Source: Patescibacteria group bacterium
GTDB lineage: Bacteria > Patescibacteriota > Microgenomatia > 0-14-0-10-38-17
Direction: 5' to 3'
Assembly (NCBI GenBank): GCA_050953885.1
Contig: JBMNNJ010000002.1
Span: forward strand, 41,586-105,585
DNA: 64,000 bases
A program made the position numbers and the translations under genes. Under the pieces are notes generated by a model, which ran no database searches, was not told the origin of the DNA, and was given only the letters and a program-made list of their open reading frames with translations. This document shows, piece by piece, positions 1,149 through 60,670 of the stretch. Numbering within the stretch: position 1 is the first letter of the stretch; each line of letters opens with the position of its first letter.

Positions 1149-1320
1149 AAATTAAAAAAGTCAAAATTCAAAAGTCAAAAGTCAAAATGAAAATGTAAAA
1201 AGTTAGTAACTCGCAATAAGTAAATTTAAAATTGCCAGTCAAAAGCTAAAAGTTCTTTTGCTTTACTTTTTAATTTTAACTTATAATTTTAACTTTTGAC
1301 TTTTGAATTGTCATTCTATT

Positions 1321-2070
1321 TTACCTCTTTTTTCTCTTAATAATATCTTTATCGCTATATTTTTTTAGTTTTCGGGTCTTTTTTCCCAAAGTTTTCTTAC
1401 CCCACGGGGTTTTAGGCGAGGGCATCCCAATCCCCGAACGACCTTCACCGCCACCATGGGGATGAGAAGCGGGATGTTGGGCCACGCCACGCACCGTGGG
1501 CCGTATTCCCCGATGGCGCTTTTGACCTGCTTTTTTAAGTTTCTTAAAACGGAATCCCTGATTGCCCACCTGACCAATAGTGGCATAGCAAAGAGAGGAA
1601 ATTTTCCTTATCTCTCCCGAGGGAAGCTTAACCTGAACTTCCTTTTTGTCTTTTGCCAAAATATAAGCCGCCGCTCCGGCGCTTCTTACCAGCTGTCCAC
1701 CCTTGCCCGGTTTTAATTCTAAATTATGAATCGGCATTCCCACCGGAATTCTTTTTAGCGCCGTCGCATTTCCTTCTTTAAGAGGGGCCTTGGGACCGGC
1801 GATAACCCTACCCCCTATTTTCATACCAGTGGTAGCTAAAATATAACGTCGCTGGCCATCTGGATAAAGAATGCGCGCAATATTGGCATTCCTTTTGGGA
1901 TCATATTCAATCGCTTCTATCTCCCCCTCAATTCCTTTTTTGTTCCGCCGCCAGTCAATCAAGCGCAAGCGCTGTTTCTCGCCGCCGCCCTGATGGCGCA
2001 CCACCACTCGACCATGACTGCGTCCCGCCTTGCTCTTGGTAGCCCGGGTTAGTTTTTTTTCAATTTTCAT
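1321..2070 (-). CDS. rplB: 50S ribosomal protein L2
   Basis: The 249 aa ORF carries the L2 motifs (GGGEGRSGIGMPSPKTPWGK; RNANIARI). Confidence 0.95.
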   Translation of the reverse strand: MKIEKKLTRATKSKAGRSHGRVVVRHQGGGEKQRLRLIDWRRNKKGIEGEIEAIEYDPKRNANIARILYPDGQRRYILATTGMKIGGRVIAGPKAPLKEGNATALKRIPVGMPIHNLELKPGKGGQLVRSAGAAAYILAKDKKEVQVKLPSGEIRKISSLCYATIGQVGNQGFRFKKLKKAGQKRHRGIRPTVRGVAQHPASHPHGGGEGRSGIGMPSPKTPWGKKTLGKKTRKLKKYSDKDIIKRKKR

Positions 2071-2378
2071 TTTTTACCCTCCTCTTCTTTGGGAAAATCA
2101 TAAAAATCAAAACTTTCGCCTTCTTTAAGCTGAACAAAAGCTTTTTTGACGCCCGCTTTCTCTATCATCCGCCGATGCTTCCCCAACACCATCTTTTTTT
2201 CACTGCCGGTTTTGGCGGTGCGTACCGTTAAAACCTTTTTCCCAAAAAATTGCCTTATTGCCTCTTTTATTTCTCCTTTGGTGGCTTTTCCGTCCACCAA
2301 AAAAGTATAGGTGTTCCCATCCTGACTCATCGCCTTCTCGCTGATTAATGGTTTTTTAACAACCCAAGACAAATCCAT
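2067..2378 (-). CDS. rplW: 50S ribosomal protein L23
   Basis: The 103 aa ORF has an L23-like core (KPLISEKA...FLVDGKATKGEIKEAI...) and overlaps rplB by 4 nt, as in the S10 operon. Confidence 0.85.
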   Translation of the reverse strand: MDLSWVVKKPLISEKAMSQDGNTYTFLVDGKATKGEIKEAIRQFFGKKVLTVRTAKTGSEKKMVLGKHRRMIEKAGVKKAFVQLKEGESFDFYDFPKEEEGKK

Positions 2379-2575
2379 AAAGCTCCCCCTTAGGGGTAAA
2401 TTATTAATGCGTAATTATAATACCATCCGTCATTCCGTCCGCCAGCGGGCGGATTGAATTTCGCGTTATTATTATGCCAGCCATTCGCTCATTCGCGTCC
2501 ATTCGTTTCCCATTCGCGTTAATTCGCGTCTTAGCAATTTAACCGTTTAATAAAATGCATCTTATTATCTTAGTA

Positions 2576-3250
2576 TCATTTCTTAATTAGCTTCTTCGCT
2601 TTCTCTTTCGATTTTTTAGCCGGTTTTCCCTCTAAAACCGCCAAGCTCGCTTTTGTGAAAACCAACGCTTCTCTCTCCAAAACTAAATAAGGATTAAGCA
2701 TCTCGGGTAAAAGAACTTTTACCCCGACAAGATTTCTAAAAGCCCGGCCCACTTTTTCTTTTTCTTCCTTAGCCATTACCACCCCTACCTTCTGTGCCGC
2801 TAAGTTTATTTTTTGAAGCAATTCCTCGGCTTTTTTGGTTTTGGGTGTCATTTTTTCAATGTCGGTTACCATCTTTATTCTTCCTTCGTTTGCTTTTTGG
2901 GATAAGGCCGCCGCCAGCGCCCTTTTTCTCATCTTTTTCGGCAAACTTAAGCGAATTTTTATTCCTTTTGGGCCATGAGCTTTGCCTCCCCCCACAAAAA
3001 TTGGCGCCTGACGATCGCCGTGGCGCGCCCGACCGGTTCCCTTTTGGGAATAAATTTTACGACCAGAGCCGGCTACCTCGGCGCGCGTCTTTGCTTTTGG
3101 AAAGGCGCGGCGCTGATTAGCTAAATAAACCCGCACCGCTTGGGCTAAAAGAACCTCGTTTACCTCCTGGCCAAAAAATTCCGCCGGCAGTTTTACCTTT
3201 TTCTCCTGCTTTTCGCCTTGATAGTTATATAAATCAACGGTTAGAGACAT
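2576..3250 (-). CDS. rplD: 50S ribosomal protein L4
   Basis: The 224 aa ORF has L4 motifs (SGRKIYSQKGTGRARHGDRQAPIFVGGGKAHGPK). Confidence 0.9.
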   Translation of the reverse strand: MSLTVDLYNYQGEKQEKKVKLPAEFFGQEVNEVLLAQAVRVYLANQRRAFPKAKTRAEVAGSGRKIYSQKGTGRARHGDRQAPIFVGGGKAHGPKGIKIRLSLPKKMRKRALAAALSQKANEGRIKMVTDIEKMTPKTKKAEELLQKINLAAQKVGVVMAKEEKEKVGRAFRNLVGVKVLLPEMLNPYLVLEREALVFTKASLAVLEGKPAKKSKEKAKKLIKK

Positions 3251-3302
3251 CTTTAATTAATTCAAAATGCAAAAGTCAAAATTCAAAATTTCAAGTCAAA
3301 AG

Positions 3303-58775: not shown

Positions 58776-59030
58776 AAATAAACGCAAATGTTAAATCGCA
58801 AAACTCAAAACTACAACGCAAAACTTAAAACTTGAAAGACAAAAACAGAATTACAATTTAGAAATACAAATATTAAGCCCTAAAGTTTTTTAGTTTTAAG
58901 TTTTAACATGTAGTTTTGAGATTTGAGTTTTAAGTTTTGAGTTTTAACATGTAGTTTTGCCATTTGACATTTGCGTTTTGAGTTTTTTATTGTTTTTGAA
59001 CTTTGATTTAGGTTTTAATCTTTGACATTT
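58776..59030. repeat. second copy of palindromic family 1 (between dnaK and grpE)
   Basis: The same conserved loop sequence and arm words as at 12751-12965. Confidence 0.6.
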
Positions 59031-59076
59031 TCACTTTGCGCTCATTTTTACGTATTACGCATTGCGTGTTACCCCT

Positions 59077-59559
59077 TTACTCTCCTTTTCCCACCTTCAC
59101 CCTTGCCGGCCGCAAGCATTTACCGCGGTATAAATATCCCGGAGAAACCTCCTCGACTACATAATTTTTCCTCCCCGGCGCTAATTCTAACGCGTCCATC
59201 AGGTGAGGATCAAAGATTTCTCCTTCAGTTTTAATTCTTTCTACTCCCTCCGAGCTCAAAACTTCCCAAAACTCATTTTTTATCATCGCCAAACCCCGGT
59301 CTTCCCTGACCCGACAGGCCCGTTCTAAATTATCAAAAACATTTAAAATTTTATCTAAAAGTCCTTCATTGGCAAAACGGATAAAATCTTGCTGCTCACG
59401 ATTAATTCTTTTTTCCAAGTTTTGATAATCGGCCAAAGCCCGTTTCCACTGTTTTTCCAATTCTTCCACCTTCTTCTCCAAATCCACTATCTTTTTATCT
59501 TCCAAAGAACTTTTTTTCTTCATCTTTTTAAAAACTAAATTCTGATAAAAGACGACCAA
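59077..59559 (-). CDS. grpE: nucleotide exchange factor GrpE (the start is probably the internal Met at about 59523)
   Basis: A coiled-coil N-terminus, a GrpE core and a C-terminal beta domain (RPARVKVGKG). Confidence 0.85.
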   Translation of the reverse strand: MVVFYQNLVFKKMKKKSSLEDKKIVDLEKKVEELEKQWKRALADYQNLEKRINREQQDFIRFANEGLLDKILNVFDNLERACRVREDRGLAMIKNEFWEVLSSEGVERIKTEGEIFDPHLMDALELAPGRKNYVVEEVSPGYLYRGKCLRPARVKVGKGE

Positions 59560-60250
59560 AAAAGTTTACCAACGGGATCACCCGACTATATTGTAAACGG
59601 CAGGGGCCTAAAACCCCAATCGCATAATCACGATTATTCCAATTAAAGCGGCTAAAAACAAAACCGCAGGAGGAAAGATAATCTCCTCCTAACTCCTCCC
59701 CCAAAAGAACATAAACCGGCATTTCCTCCCCCTTTTTGCTAATTACCCCCTGCCAAAAAGAATAGTTATCCAATACCGACAAAAGCGATTGGGTTAAGTC
59801 AATATCCCAAAATTCCGGAAAATTTAAAATATTCGCCAAACCGGCCAAATAAAATTCCTCGTCAGGTCCAATCACTAAAGAAAGAACCCCCGACCGCCGC
59901 GCTAATTCTATTGTTGCCTCCCTAATCAACCTTTCCTTTGCCTCTCGGTGCGGCCAAATCCGCTCCTTAATCCCCGCTTCATCTTTCACCGAAATCTCCT
60001 GGGGTTTTAAAAGATTATGAACATAAAACTTCAGCCCTAAAGGGGTGGGCACCCTGCCGGCAGAAATATGCGACTTTTGCAAATAGCCAGCTTCGGCCAA
60101 ATCGCTCATCTCGTTTCTAATCGTGGCCGGAGAAACACCTAAGCTATACTTTTTCTCAAGCCTGTCCGAGGAAACCGGCCGTGCTGTTTGTACATACTCA
60201 TCCACCACCGCTTTCAAAATGGCAATTTGTCTTTCTGTTAAAGTAGTCAT
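59528..60250 (-). CDS. hrcA: heat-inducible transcription repressor HrcA (short form)
   Basis: The N-terminus LTERQIAILKAVVDEYVQTARPVSSDRL...LGVSPATIRNEMSDLAEAGYL...SAGRVPT is the HrcA winged-helix signature. The gene heads the hrcA-grpE-dnaK-dnaJ operon. No canonical CIRCE was found upstream. Confidence 0.8.
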   Translation of the reverse strand: MTTLTERQIAILKAVVDEYVQTARPVSSDRLEKKYSLGVSPATIRNEMSDLAEAGYLQKSHISAGRVPTPLGLKFYVHNLLKPQEISVKDEAGIKERIWPHREAKERLIREATIELARRSGVLSLVIGPDEEFYLAGLANILNFPEFWDIDLTQSLLSVLDNYSFWQGVISKKGEEMPVYVLLGEELGGDYLSSCGFVFSRFNWNNRDYAIGVLGPCRLQYSRVIPLVNFFGRLLSEFSF

Positions 60251-60499
60251 CAGCTTTTCCTTTTAGCAAAAATATACCACGACTGCCAAAAATTGTCAAC
60301 CGGAATTTTTTCCAAAGGCGCTTTCTTAAAAAGTGGAGATAGAATCTTTAGCCTTGAGAAGCCAAATTTTACCAGAGGTGTAAACAGGGAACTACCTCTA
60401 AGGTGGTGTAATTTGCTGTATTTTTTTGCTTCTCTTTTAAGCCCCTTGGATGCTATACTTAAAAAAATAATGATACAAGGATACAAGGAAGCACGAGAA

Positions 60500-60670
60500 A
60501 TAAACTCAAAACGCAAATGGCAAATGTCAAATCTACATGGCAAATGTTAAAACTTTTTAAAACTTAAAGTTGTTTTTTTTAGATTTGAGTTTTGAGTTGT
60601 AGTTTTGAGTTTTGCGATTTAACATTTGAGTTTATTTATTATCTTTTAATTTTAACTTTTGAATTCCTTT
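60500..60670. repeat. palindromic intergenic element, family 2, inverted copy (hrcA-murJ spacer)
   Basis: ctacatggcaaatgttaaaactttttaaaacttaaagttgttttttttag is the reverse complement of the family-2 core. Confidence 0.6.

Follow-up and report, generated by a model that had tools for sequence, protein, structure and literature searches.

Why are the spacers between the genes of the most conserved operons of a very small bacterial genome filled with short repeated sequences, and what are these repeats? The question is raised by a stretch of 64,000 nucleotides (nt), hereafter the window, from contig JBMNNJ010000002.1 (positions 41,586 to 105,585, assembly GCA_050953885.1) of a tiny-genome groundwater bacterium. 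The host is a Shapirobacteria-like member of the Patescibacteria, and the closest named EF-G relatives of the window are Candidatus Shapirobacteria at 74% identity. In this genome the spacers have been colonised by several kinds of small repeats, and the dominant one is a palindrome with arms that are short-period tandem arrays. The interpretation we favor, with a little better than even confidence, is that the spacers hold gene-less members of an invasive class of palindromic elements, the arms of which are tandem arrays with periods of 7, 8 or 10–11 nt. Contigs and loci compared with the window carry L numbers.

The recurrence that an earlier note on this DNA had described was borne out. An ATTCG module, heptamer and octamer words, a 16-base pair (bp) palindrome, small hairpins and palindromes of 150–230 nt all recur far above chance. 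Runs of at least three ATTCG spaced by 3–7 nt gave 23 pattern matches at about 15 places, compared with 0.02 expected. The 16-bp palindrome TCCGCCAGCTGGCGGA, for which five instances had been claimed, is present in three exact copies (0.15 expected); the other two are near copies. The words TCTGACGAAAGTCAGA and TCTGAATCAAGTTCAGAATGAC each occur in 3 copies, and TAGCGCAnTTTAnTGCGCGC in 3–4 copies, with approximately zero expected in each case; taken together, the 16-bp palindrome, the two hairpin words and the TAGCGCA...TGCGCGC hairpin have 3–5 copies each. Dozens of imperfect arrays with periods of 7, 8 and 10 were reported by Tandem Repeats Finder, and arrays with periods of 6–11 cover 18.9% of the 9,316 intergenic nt versus 0.57% of the coding nt. 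The statement that almost every spacer is built in this way was too broad. Arrays are present in 21 of the 34 spacers of at least 40 nt (~62%, a share that is somewhat higher when hairpins and palindromes are counted), and several long spacers are free of them (16721–16868, 20241–21101, 22675–23006, 24804–25110 and 26179–26484). The window sequence also occurs, at 99.8–100% identity, in contig Ga0591961_000720 of JGI sample 3300060679 and in nine or more further assemblies. The spacer arrays are not an assembly artefact, since ten contigs from other samples match the window at this identity through the spacers.

The ATTCG array (module 1) has units spaced by 8, 10, 11 and 10 nt that vary mostly at the Y of ATTCGYG. 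A single order of five distinct units is kept over 15 sites, across genomes and across phyla. The copies that read ATTCG on the plus strand are as follows.

2483–2530, plus strand: five ATTCG units with the spacing given above, the outer end toward the rplD stop codon, followed by TTAGCAATTTAAC octamers at 2531–2543.
4523–4538, plus strand: remnant of two units at the end of the heptamer arm 4494–4539.
7700–7733, plus strand: remnant of two units with octamers, adjoining the rpsJ stop codon.
27021–27083, plus strand: five units with CAACAGTTTAACTG, abutting the stop codon of a sortase gene.
36225–36282, plus strand: six units, overlapping the 3' end of the proS reading frame.
38172–38187, plus strand: remnant of two units at the outer end of a Family B element, adjoining the stop codon of the RNase J gene.
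39972–40018, plus strand: four units (one ATTCA), running into the stop codon of the open reading frame (ORF) at 40013–40660.
40862–40912, plus strand: five units, 13 nt from the stop codon of an AAA/Lon-like gene.
48338–48387, plus strand: three to four units with TTAACAATTTAACAG, adjoining the nusA stop codon.
56616–56685, plus strand: five units with octamers, in the dnaK–dnaJ spacer.

The copies on the minus strand, which read CGAAT on the plus strand, are listed below.

4129–4183, minus strand: five units.
27807–27848, minus strand: four units leading into a Family B element, upstream of the probable true sortase start.
32059–32101, minus strand: array with its last unit ending 8 nt before the alaS ATG.
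33063–33105, minus strand: array between the octamer array 33015–33063 and a Family B element.
58739–58779, minus strand: array upstream of dnaK; the synteny with contig L185 breaks at its inner edge, 58775.

The modules are not arranged at random. In 18 of the 22 repeat-bearing spacers the left part is A-rich and the right part T-rich; the spacers read A-rich first and T-rich last on either strand because each is a long imperfect palindrome of arrays. Read in the sense of the mRNA, a typical spacer runs from the stop codon through octamers, a CGAAU array and CUCAAAA-type heptamers to the centre, and from there through UUUUGAG-type heptamers, an AUUCG array and octamers to the start codon; the centre is often occupied by GC-rich palindromes or small hairpins. 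The inverted arms are 40–70 nt in length with 71–81% complementarity. Module 1 is located at the spacer edges in both orientations, and its ...AATTCGYGTTT end always points outward to the neighbouring gene, whether the boundary is a start or a stop. This ordered palindromic layout was missed in the earlier description of reshuffled modules.

The orthologous region from rpoB to rplB was compared in three relatives (L083, L084 and L085) with EF-G proteins 73–75% identical to that of the window. Contig L084 is compact and array-free with ordinary spacers; the rpoC–rpsL spacer is 43 nt, the rpsL–rpsG spacer is 8 nt, and several genes overlap. In L083, from a Crystal Geyser Shapirobacteria genome, the spacers are bloated with heptamers, CATTGTTA octamers, the TCCGCCAGCTGGCGGA palindrome and GTCATTCTGG...CCAGAATGAC hairpins; there are hardly any ATTCG arrays, and the content at each orthologous site is unlike that of the window. 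The spacers of L085 are intermediate between these two and their repeats also differ from those of the window. The paralogous copies within the window (88–93% identical, in agreement with the high identity noted earlier) are much more alike than the orthologous spacers of different species. Given an array-free relative, two relatives with other repeats, and paralogues more alike than orthologues, the spacers are not conserved regulatory leaders, and the earlier claim of dispersed, recombined repeats is upheld.

The ATTCG array also occurs outside this lineage, which the earlier note had missed. Contigs from one genome per species were scanned with the pattern ATTCGTTTNNNATTCGNNNNAATTCG, which gave 72 blocks, compared with 4–15 by chance in our own estimate from composition; about 8 of the matches look coding or fortuitous. 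The remaining blocks are arrays of (A)ATTCG(T/C)(G/T)T units with a period of 10 or 11. They were found in many classes of Patescibacteria and in Omnitrophota (contigs of 245 and 811 kb), Bacteroidota, Ignavibacteria, KSB1, Anaerolineales, Nitrospiria, Verrucomicrobia and Cloacimonadales. A complete chromosome of a member of the Chitinophagaceae carries an ATTCG array with the same order of distinct units as module 1 of the window. Many of the arrays are inverted pairs in which a CACGAAT array is followed by an ATTCGTG array, and the sites resemble those of the window (rplL–rpoB, after rpsG, before RNase J and before groEL). In a set of 64 loci with arrays, the ATTCG strand abuts gene starts and gene stops alike with its 3' end. 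All the modules of the window are present together in five blocks (L040, L044, L051, L068 and L079). Three of these contigs (L040 and L044, binned as Omnitrophota, and L068, binned as Desulfotomaculum) are short, carry the full Shapirobacteria-type set, and are probably mis-binned. On the 811-kb Omnitrophota contig (L045), a free-standing LAGLIDADG-like ORF of 256 amino acids (aa), identified by eye from its motifs, adjoins an ATTCG array.

At some of these loci the inverted arrays enclose a gene. At L069, L062 and L026, the array pair surrounds an ORF of 124–149 aa that was identified as a GxxExxY protein (TIGR04256) and as PF13366 (PDDEXK_3) with E values of 1e-29 to 1e-39. A GxxExxY gene is likewise flanked by arrays at L082, L056 and L052, the units of the last having decayed to ATTTG/CAAAT. 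At L069 (1240–1290) the hisS reading frame enters the CGAAT array of the inserted cassette, which supplies its stop codon, and the C-terminal end of the host protein has accordingly been remodelled by the insertion. To sample loci without bias toward arrays, metagenome contigs were searched with a protein pattern, which gave 518 relatives, from which 80 loci with 72 distinct genes were kept. At least three copies of a CNAAT-type 5-mer within about 100 nt upstream, together with at least three of its reverse complement downstream, were found for 38 of the 72 genes; 58 have at least two copies on each side. None of 45 control windows displaced by 450 nt reached three copies on each side. The flanking units are CGAAT, (T)ACGAA, CTAAT, CAAAT and TACTA with periods of 7, 8, 10 and 11. 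Inverted array flanks were detected for 43 of the approximately 1,600 ORFs of at least 70 aa in the fetched DNA, and 37 of these 43 ORFs are GxxExxY genes.

The gene is always located at the centre of the palindrome. Its own two flanks pair at −32.9 kcal/mol, compared with −22.3 kcal/mol for flanks of different loci (p = 7e-13), and in 60 of 69 cassettes the A-rich side comes first, as in the spacers of the window. A structural model of the protein (pLDDT 91) has a PD-(D/E)XK fold with Cas4 as its nearest relative and invariant D, E and K residues; no solved structure was found for the family by sequence, and fold searches gave generic PD-(D/E)XK relatives, the best being Cas4. Units around one gene share a single CNAAT variant, and closely related proteins carry different variants. 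Module 1 and the arms of these cassettes match in unit, period (10–11), unit order, polarity and gene abutment, and the link between the two is strong. The earlier suggestion that the helically phased array belongs to a protein thereby gains indirect support, as like arrays enclose a nuclease gene in many phyla.

A second gene family is found in a similar setting. At L064, heptamers of the type (GAGTTCT/GAGTTTT)n, a unit that also occurs in the window, flank an ORF for a 23S rRNA intervening sequence protein (PF05635, TIGR02436). The genes at L064 and L085 were confirmed by a profile scan, and those at other loci were assigned by jackhmmer or by a precomputed PF05635 label. Nine such loci were inspected. 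Both arms are inverted 7–8-nt A/T-rich arrays at L064, L166, L173, L175, L178 and L182; inverted CACCAG/CTGGTG units lie on both sides at L022; and L146 and L085 have arrays on the single available side. At L085 and L182 the fusA–tuf spacer, which is plain in the window, L083 and L084, has received an insertion of the gene with (AATTTCT)n...(AGAAATT)n arms. Solved relatives of PF05635 have been deposited as five-chain uncharacterised proteins and have no nuclease fold. In the searchable literature both gene families receive only passing mention or are described as functionally uncharacterised, the term that a survey of rRNA insertions in Patescibacteria applies to the PF05635 domain (PMC11270868). 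No literature was found on arrays around GxxExxY or PF05635 genes, or on insertion between protein genes, within an incomplete coverage of the literature; a search with the sequence word CACGAAT returned only noise.

In the window these arms are combined with other repeats. The genes, almost all on the minus strand, are in the order rpoB, rpoC, rpsL, rpsG, fusA, tuf, rpsJ, two unannotated genes, rplC, rplD, rplW, rplB, rpsS and rplV, and further along alaS, ftsK, proS, RNase J, pnp, infB, nusA, dnaJ, dnaK, grpE and hrcA. The heptamer and octamer arrays between them are given below without strand.

1154–1320: heptamer palindrome in the rplB–rpsS spacer, with an AAAAGTC-type arm (1154–1203) and a GACTTTT-type arm (1262–1320).
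3252–3310: heptamer array that occupies the entire rplC–rplD spacer.
4180–4262: heptamer array (4180–4247), then octamer array CTAAATTG (4238–4262).
5850–5935: T-rich heptamer arm (TTTTGCG / TTTTGAA).
7615–7695: octamers TTTAGCAA, then T-rich heptamers.
11487–11536: octamer array AAATTGTT directly upstream of the fusA start codon.
12035–12301: arms of the rpsL–rpsG spacer, A-rich heptamers at 12035–12126, T-rich ones at 12146–12211 and 12274–12301, and a degenerate GC palindrome at 12258–12273.
26877–26917: octamer array (TAAATTGY) directly upstream of the start of a ruvX-like gene.
27995–28025: octamer array GTATCTTA, 3.9 copies.
30142–30229: octamer palindrome of reversed polarity, with a CATTGYTT array (30142–30170) and a AACAATGN array (30198–30229).
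32107–32380: A-rich 7-mers (32107–32177), GC palindrome and hairpins, and a heptamer palindrome (32275–32380).
33015–33063: octamer array TAAATTGT, 5.5 copies.
40732–40858: heptamer palindrome of the ATCAAAG / CTTTGAT type.

The two families of long imperfect palindromes that had been described are both present. Family A has two copies with 88% identity (12792–12957 and 58807–58972), and the five copies of Family B align end to end.

12743–12973, no strand assigned: Family A element in the rpoC–rpsL spacer.
58771–59010, no strand assigned: second copy of Family A, the identity of the two extending over 166 nt.
27838–27990, plus strand: Family B element of about 150 nt with the TCCGCCAGCTGGCGGA palindrome inserted in its right arm.
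33108–33285, plus strand: Family B element with a 36-nt GC-rich hairpin inserted in its left arm.
38020–38192, minus strand: Family B element in a spacer with an RNA fold of −68 kcal/mol (z = −5.0).
48185–48352, minus strand: Family B element in the nusA–infB spacer, 93% identical to the 38020 copy.
60488–60640, plus strand: Family B element upstream of a murJ-like gene on the plus strand, with GATACAAG octamers (60472–60489) before the element.

The GC-rich palindromes, hairpins, doublets and a further palindromic element are located as follows.

2438–2453, no strand assigned: GC palindrome TCCGCCAGCgGGCGGA, one mismatch.
4321–4336, no strand assigned: GC palindrome TCCGCCAGCTGGCGGA.
27942–27957, no strand assigned: GC palindrome nested in a Family B element.
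32178–32193, no strand assigned: GC palindrome TCCGCCAGCTGGCGGA.
4271–4286, plus strand: hairpin CCTGATGAAAATCAGG.
7470–7611, plus strand: cluster of small hairpins, TCTGAATCAAGTTCAGAATGAC at 7470 and 7590 and TCTGACGAAAGTCAGA at 7551.
16765–16780, plus strand: hairpin TCTGACGAAAGTCAGA in the rpoB–rpoC spacer.
32209–32264, plus strand: hairpin pair TCTGAATCAAGTTCAGAATGAC and TCTGACGAAAGTCAGA.
7328–7347, plus strand: module 6 hairpin TAGCGCAATTTATTGCGCGC.
37997–38016, plus strand: module 6 hairpin.
56591–56610, plus strand: module 6 hairpin with two mismatches.
5768–5842, no strand assigned: REPIN-like doublet of two inverted 27-nt GTAGGGGCG... units, 21 nt apart.
39900–39974, no strand assigned: REPIN-like doublet with the same geometry.
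26921–27012, plus strand: palindromic element of ACAGGAT units, with module 1 directly after it.
36122–36214, minus strand: inverted copy of the ACAGGAT-unit element, with module 1 directly after it.

Extra GC-rich palindromes are inserted in two of the five aligned Family B copies, at positions that differ between the two. The 16-bp palindrome is one of these insertions and therefore acts as a nested mini-insertion. Every copy of the small hairpins lies on the plus strand, so the GAAA loops would read UUUC in the mRNA of minus-strand genes; the proposal of GAAA-loop (GNRA-type) RNA hairpins is not supported, the loops being on the strand antisense to the mRNA. The predicted spacer RNAs are long interrupted hairpins that fold better than shuffled sequences (z = −3.1 to −5.0), and RNA processing at these modelled hairpins is plausible. 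A strand-specific RNA function was considered and discarded, as the sense and antisense folds are not consistently different and Family B is present in both orientations relative to transcription. The Rfam 15 models were searched at gathering and at permissive thresholds; tRNA-Cys alone reached threshold and nothing credible appeared at E values up to 5.

A single scheme would accommodate these results. The module 1 arms would be gene-less relatives of the (ATTCGYGTnn) arrays that form the inverted arms around GxxExxY genes in many phyla. The cassettes fit tightly between host genes with the outer ends of their arms against start or stop codons. The two arms are complementary, and therefore the insert would fold into a long stem in the transcript, as rRNA intervening sequences do. 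In this genome the gene-less forms would have multiplied and recombined and would then have been invaded by smaller GC-rich palindromes and REPIN-like doublets; such multiplication, recombination and nested invasion would produce the picture of reshuffled modules. The encoded protein would bind or cut the arrays and drive their spread, or home into them, and the hairpins would be cut by RNase III or would in some other way prevent the inserts from harming operon expression. The chance that the cassettes form a mobile-element class of their own is substantial. In its full form, which is put forward tentatively and is possible rather than probable, this proposal would define the class as a small ORF within inverted arrays of 5–8-nt motifs that inserts exactly at gene boundaries and in rRNA. 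A minimal PD-(D/E)XK nuclease or a pentameric four-helix-bundle protein recognising phased arrays would take the place of a transposase, and the insert would be harmless as its arms fold and are cut out of the transcript. The gene-less derivatives would have grown to about one-fifth of the intergenic DNA in some Patescibacteria, and would occupy spacers of the ribosomal and RNA polymerase operons as well.

Several results weigh against this account. No GxxExxY or PF05635 gene or remnant was detected in the window, including six-frame profile searches of the spacers, or in approximately 27 kb of adjoining genome that holds more modules. Neither target-site duplications nor sharp ends were found for the Family B or module 1 copies, the ends of which grade into other arrays. 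No insertion polymorphism was observed among the 10 same-species contigs from other samples, and the earlier description of the spread as recent is to that extent not supported. The heptamer and octamer arrays are tied to gene cassettes by style and by one shared unit (GAGTTYT, L064). The A/T polarity of the PF05635 cassettes is opposite to that of the window or absent, and the heptamer palindromes of the window are therefore not simple deletion products of these cassettes. GxxExxY protein clades do not co-vary with the unit variant (CGAAT, CAAAT or CTAAT); the identities are 51.4% and 51.2%. The arrays could equally be the multi-copy target of the nuclease gene rather than its termini. With respect to RNA structure, no consistent difference was found between the sense and antisense folds, the strand asymmetry being mixed, and the stems show only 1 compensatory pair in 46 among the five Family B copies, which are too similar to one another for a test of covariation.

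An unlikely but credible alternative is that the arrays are signals at cistron boundaries that benefit the host, such as stems for processing by RNase III or another enzyme, bidirectional terminators or insulators, or arrays bound by an abundant protein with affinity for DNA or RNA, and that the GxxExxY and PF05635 genes merely carry similar punctuation. The arrays do lie exactly at gene boundaries, with outer ends 1–25 nt from start or stop codons in many phyla; their polarity is consistent, A-rich and then T-rich; stable hairpins are predicted; and they occur beside like housekeeping genes (rpoB, ribosomal proteins, groEL and RNase J) in distant lineages. A host signal of this kind is difficult to reconcile with a relative that has a ~73% identical EF-G and no arrays in these operons, with other relatives that have different modules at the orthologous sites, or with modules in both orientations and variable order. 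No known RNA family matches, and inverted array flanks among the ORFs surveyed are almost confined to GxxExxY genes, as described above.

It is decidedly unlikely, in our estimation, that the gene-less palindromic arrays are primary, being self-propagating or neutral, and that GxxExxY is a secondary parasite akin to a homing endonuclease that cleaves intact arrays and inserts a copy of itself at their centre. The central position of the gene and the intact nuclease triad of its product would be expected from homing, and gene-less arrays exceed gene-bearing ones by approximately 12 to 1 in a sample selected by pattern; gene-free, adjacent CGAAT|ATTCG palindromes are common (L013, L015, L048, L061, L075 and L077). 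Homing would leave the spread of the arrays themselves unexplained, however, no empty and filled pair of one site was seen, and PF05635 genes have similar flanks without a nuclease fold. In-place replication slippage in a lineage with weak repair, in the manner of microsatellites, with the likeness among arrays a convergence of A/T-rich units, is very improbable. The arrays are imperfect tandem repeats of variable copy number, and the single CNAAT variant around each GxxExxY gene suggests local homogenisation. Slippage is already largely refuted by the long multi-module copies, as composite elements of 150–230 nt recur at 88–93% identity in unrelated spacers; moreover, the order of the five module 1 units is conserved as noted above, and the two arms of a locus are inverted copies of each other that are specific to that locus.

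Functionally, the element of the window most resembles rRNA intervening sequences (IVS) and the repetitive extragenic palindromic (REP), bacterial interspersed mosaic element (BIME) and miniature inverted-repeat transposable element (MITE) types of repeat. It fails the tests that define these groups, namely location, target duplication and transposase. REP, BIME and REPIN (REP doublet) sequences are extragenic, palindromic and highly repeated, form mosaics of motifs, and are mobilised by REP-associated tyrosine transposases (RAYT). Only the doublets at 5768–5842 and 39900–39974 (GTAGGGGCG, with a GTAG head and 27-nt arms 21 nt apart) have REPIN geometry, and the idea of a REP-like system survives for these two. 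The array modules and TCCGCCAGCTGGCGGA lack the GTAG head, the array modules are not single palindromes of 20–40 nt, and the associated genes belong to other families; no RAYT gene was seen in about 90 kb of this genome. MITEs such as the Correia elements of Neisseria are short, gene-less, many-copy elements with inverted ends that lie near genes and are co-transcribed with them, and Correia transcripts are cut by RNase III. The present elements are similarly gene-less, with inverted arms at the spacer ends and many copies between genes, but they have arms of tandem units, ends that are not sharp, no target-site duplication and no DDE transposase partner, and strict MITE membership was not supported. 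The only transposase gene of the window (44680–45855, rve_3) is not flanked by modules, and no matching transposase was found; the genes between such arms elsewhere are GxxExxY and PF05635 rather than transposases.

The short tandemly repeated heptamers and small dispersed repeats of cyanobacteria reportedly consist of intergenic tandem heptamers with tiny palindromic repeats inserted inside them. Here the GC palindrome within a Family B arm corresponds to these tiny repeats; the present arrays are from another phylum, have other units, and are inverted arm pairs tied to specific small genes. The pneumococcal BOX elements are modular intergenic repeats (boxA, boxB repeated n times and boxC) in which the number of modules varies and the predicted RNA structure is stable. 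Their sequences are unrelated, and they have neither short-period arrays nor an associated gene. In Coxiella burnetii a PF05635-family (S23p) ORF is located in a 23S rRNA IVS, a selfish element with terminal inverted repeats that is excised by RNase III, the enzyme that cuts the IVS stem in published cases (PMC4990558). The likeness to the IVS is that of a selfish insert with complementary, stem-forming termini, a PF05635/four-helix-bundle ORF or none, and a sporadic distribution among relatives; PF05635 genes are also array-flanked at the present loci, and the window itself has no such ORF. The present copies differ in that all lie between protein-coding genes, there being no rRNA in the window, that their arms are tandem arrays of 5–8-nt motifs rather than unique inverted repeats, and that a second family of cassettes encodes a PD-(D/E)XK nuclease. 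Tandem repeats in the form of CRISPR and TIGR guide arrays are common in Patescibacteria and their phages (PMC12045711). These were rejected as an identification, as they have periods of ~36–70 nt, unique spacers and effector genes, whereas the arrays of the window have periods of 7–11 nt and no unique spacers, and no cas- or Tas-like genes are present among the ORFs. In a comparison of the units by eye, no match was found to DnaA boxes, parS, the CtsR heptad operator, IHF or sigma-54 sites, the Bacteroidota −33/−7 promoter, direct repeats of the ArcA/PhoB type or Rho rut sites. A leaderless promoter was also rejected; the last ATTCG unit is 4–22 nt from the ATG, and with this spacing there is no −10 element at the required distance.

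Other features were observed in the window and in related contigs. Two genes on the minus strand (4596–5750 and 5936–7219) with hydrophobic N-termini and no Pfam match lie between rpsJ and rplC in the S10 operon; L083 and L084 have no genes at this site. Upstream of rpoB, 861 nt (20241–21101) contain no convincing ORF, arrays or Rfam match; in relatives, 170–450 nt separate rpoB from a preceding YceG-family gene. A 36-nt repeat (22829–22864 and 24990–25024, 97% identical) occurs in array-free spacers upstream of DUF2207, peptidase and glycosyl hydrolase genes, and together with the word TATTTACACCTCYGG, found at 20419, 22786 and 24957 in array-free spacers, may be a separate leader or promoter motif. 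The window holds one intact DDE transposase gene with rve_3 and HTH domains (44680–45855, plus strand), a transposase fragment (49510–49758, minus strand) and a 43-nt repeat (49563–49605 and 52771–52813, 97.7% identical) that may represent the ends of an insertion sequence; these have no connection with the array modules. In other assemblies of the same species, synteny breaks inside fusA (L002/L010 versus window 9901), at the inner edge of the CGAAT array (L185 versus window 58775) and right after rpsH (L184 versus L183 14677), and these breaks are either real rearrangements at repeats or chimeric assemblies. On the variant contig L185 (4520–7972), a ribonucleotide reductase gene with an intein (LAGLIDADG_3) takes the place of dnaK upstream of grpE.

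The fixed association of GxxExxY and PF05635 genes with phased inverted arrays provides these two families with a testable ligand and a likely selfish life style. For metagenomics, the spacer repeats break and possibly scramble assemblies, and contigs containing such repeats have been filed in bins with unrelated names (L040, L044 and L068). If the proposed origin is correct, the concept of the intervening sequence would be widened from rRNA to ordinary operons, and the swollen spacers inside the most conserved operons of some of the smallest bacterial genomes would be explained.

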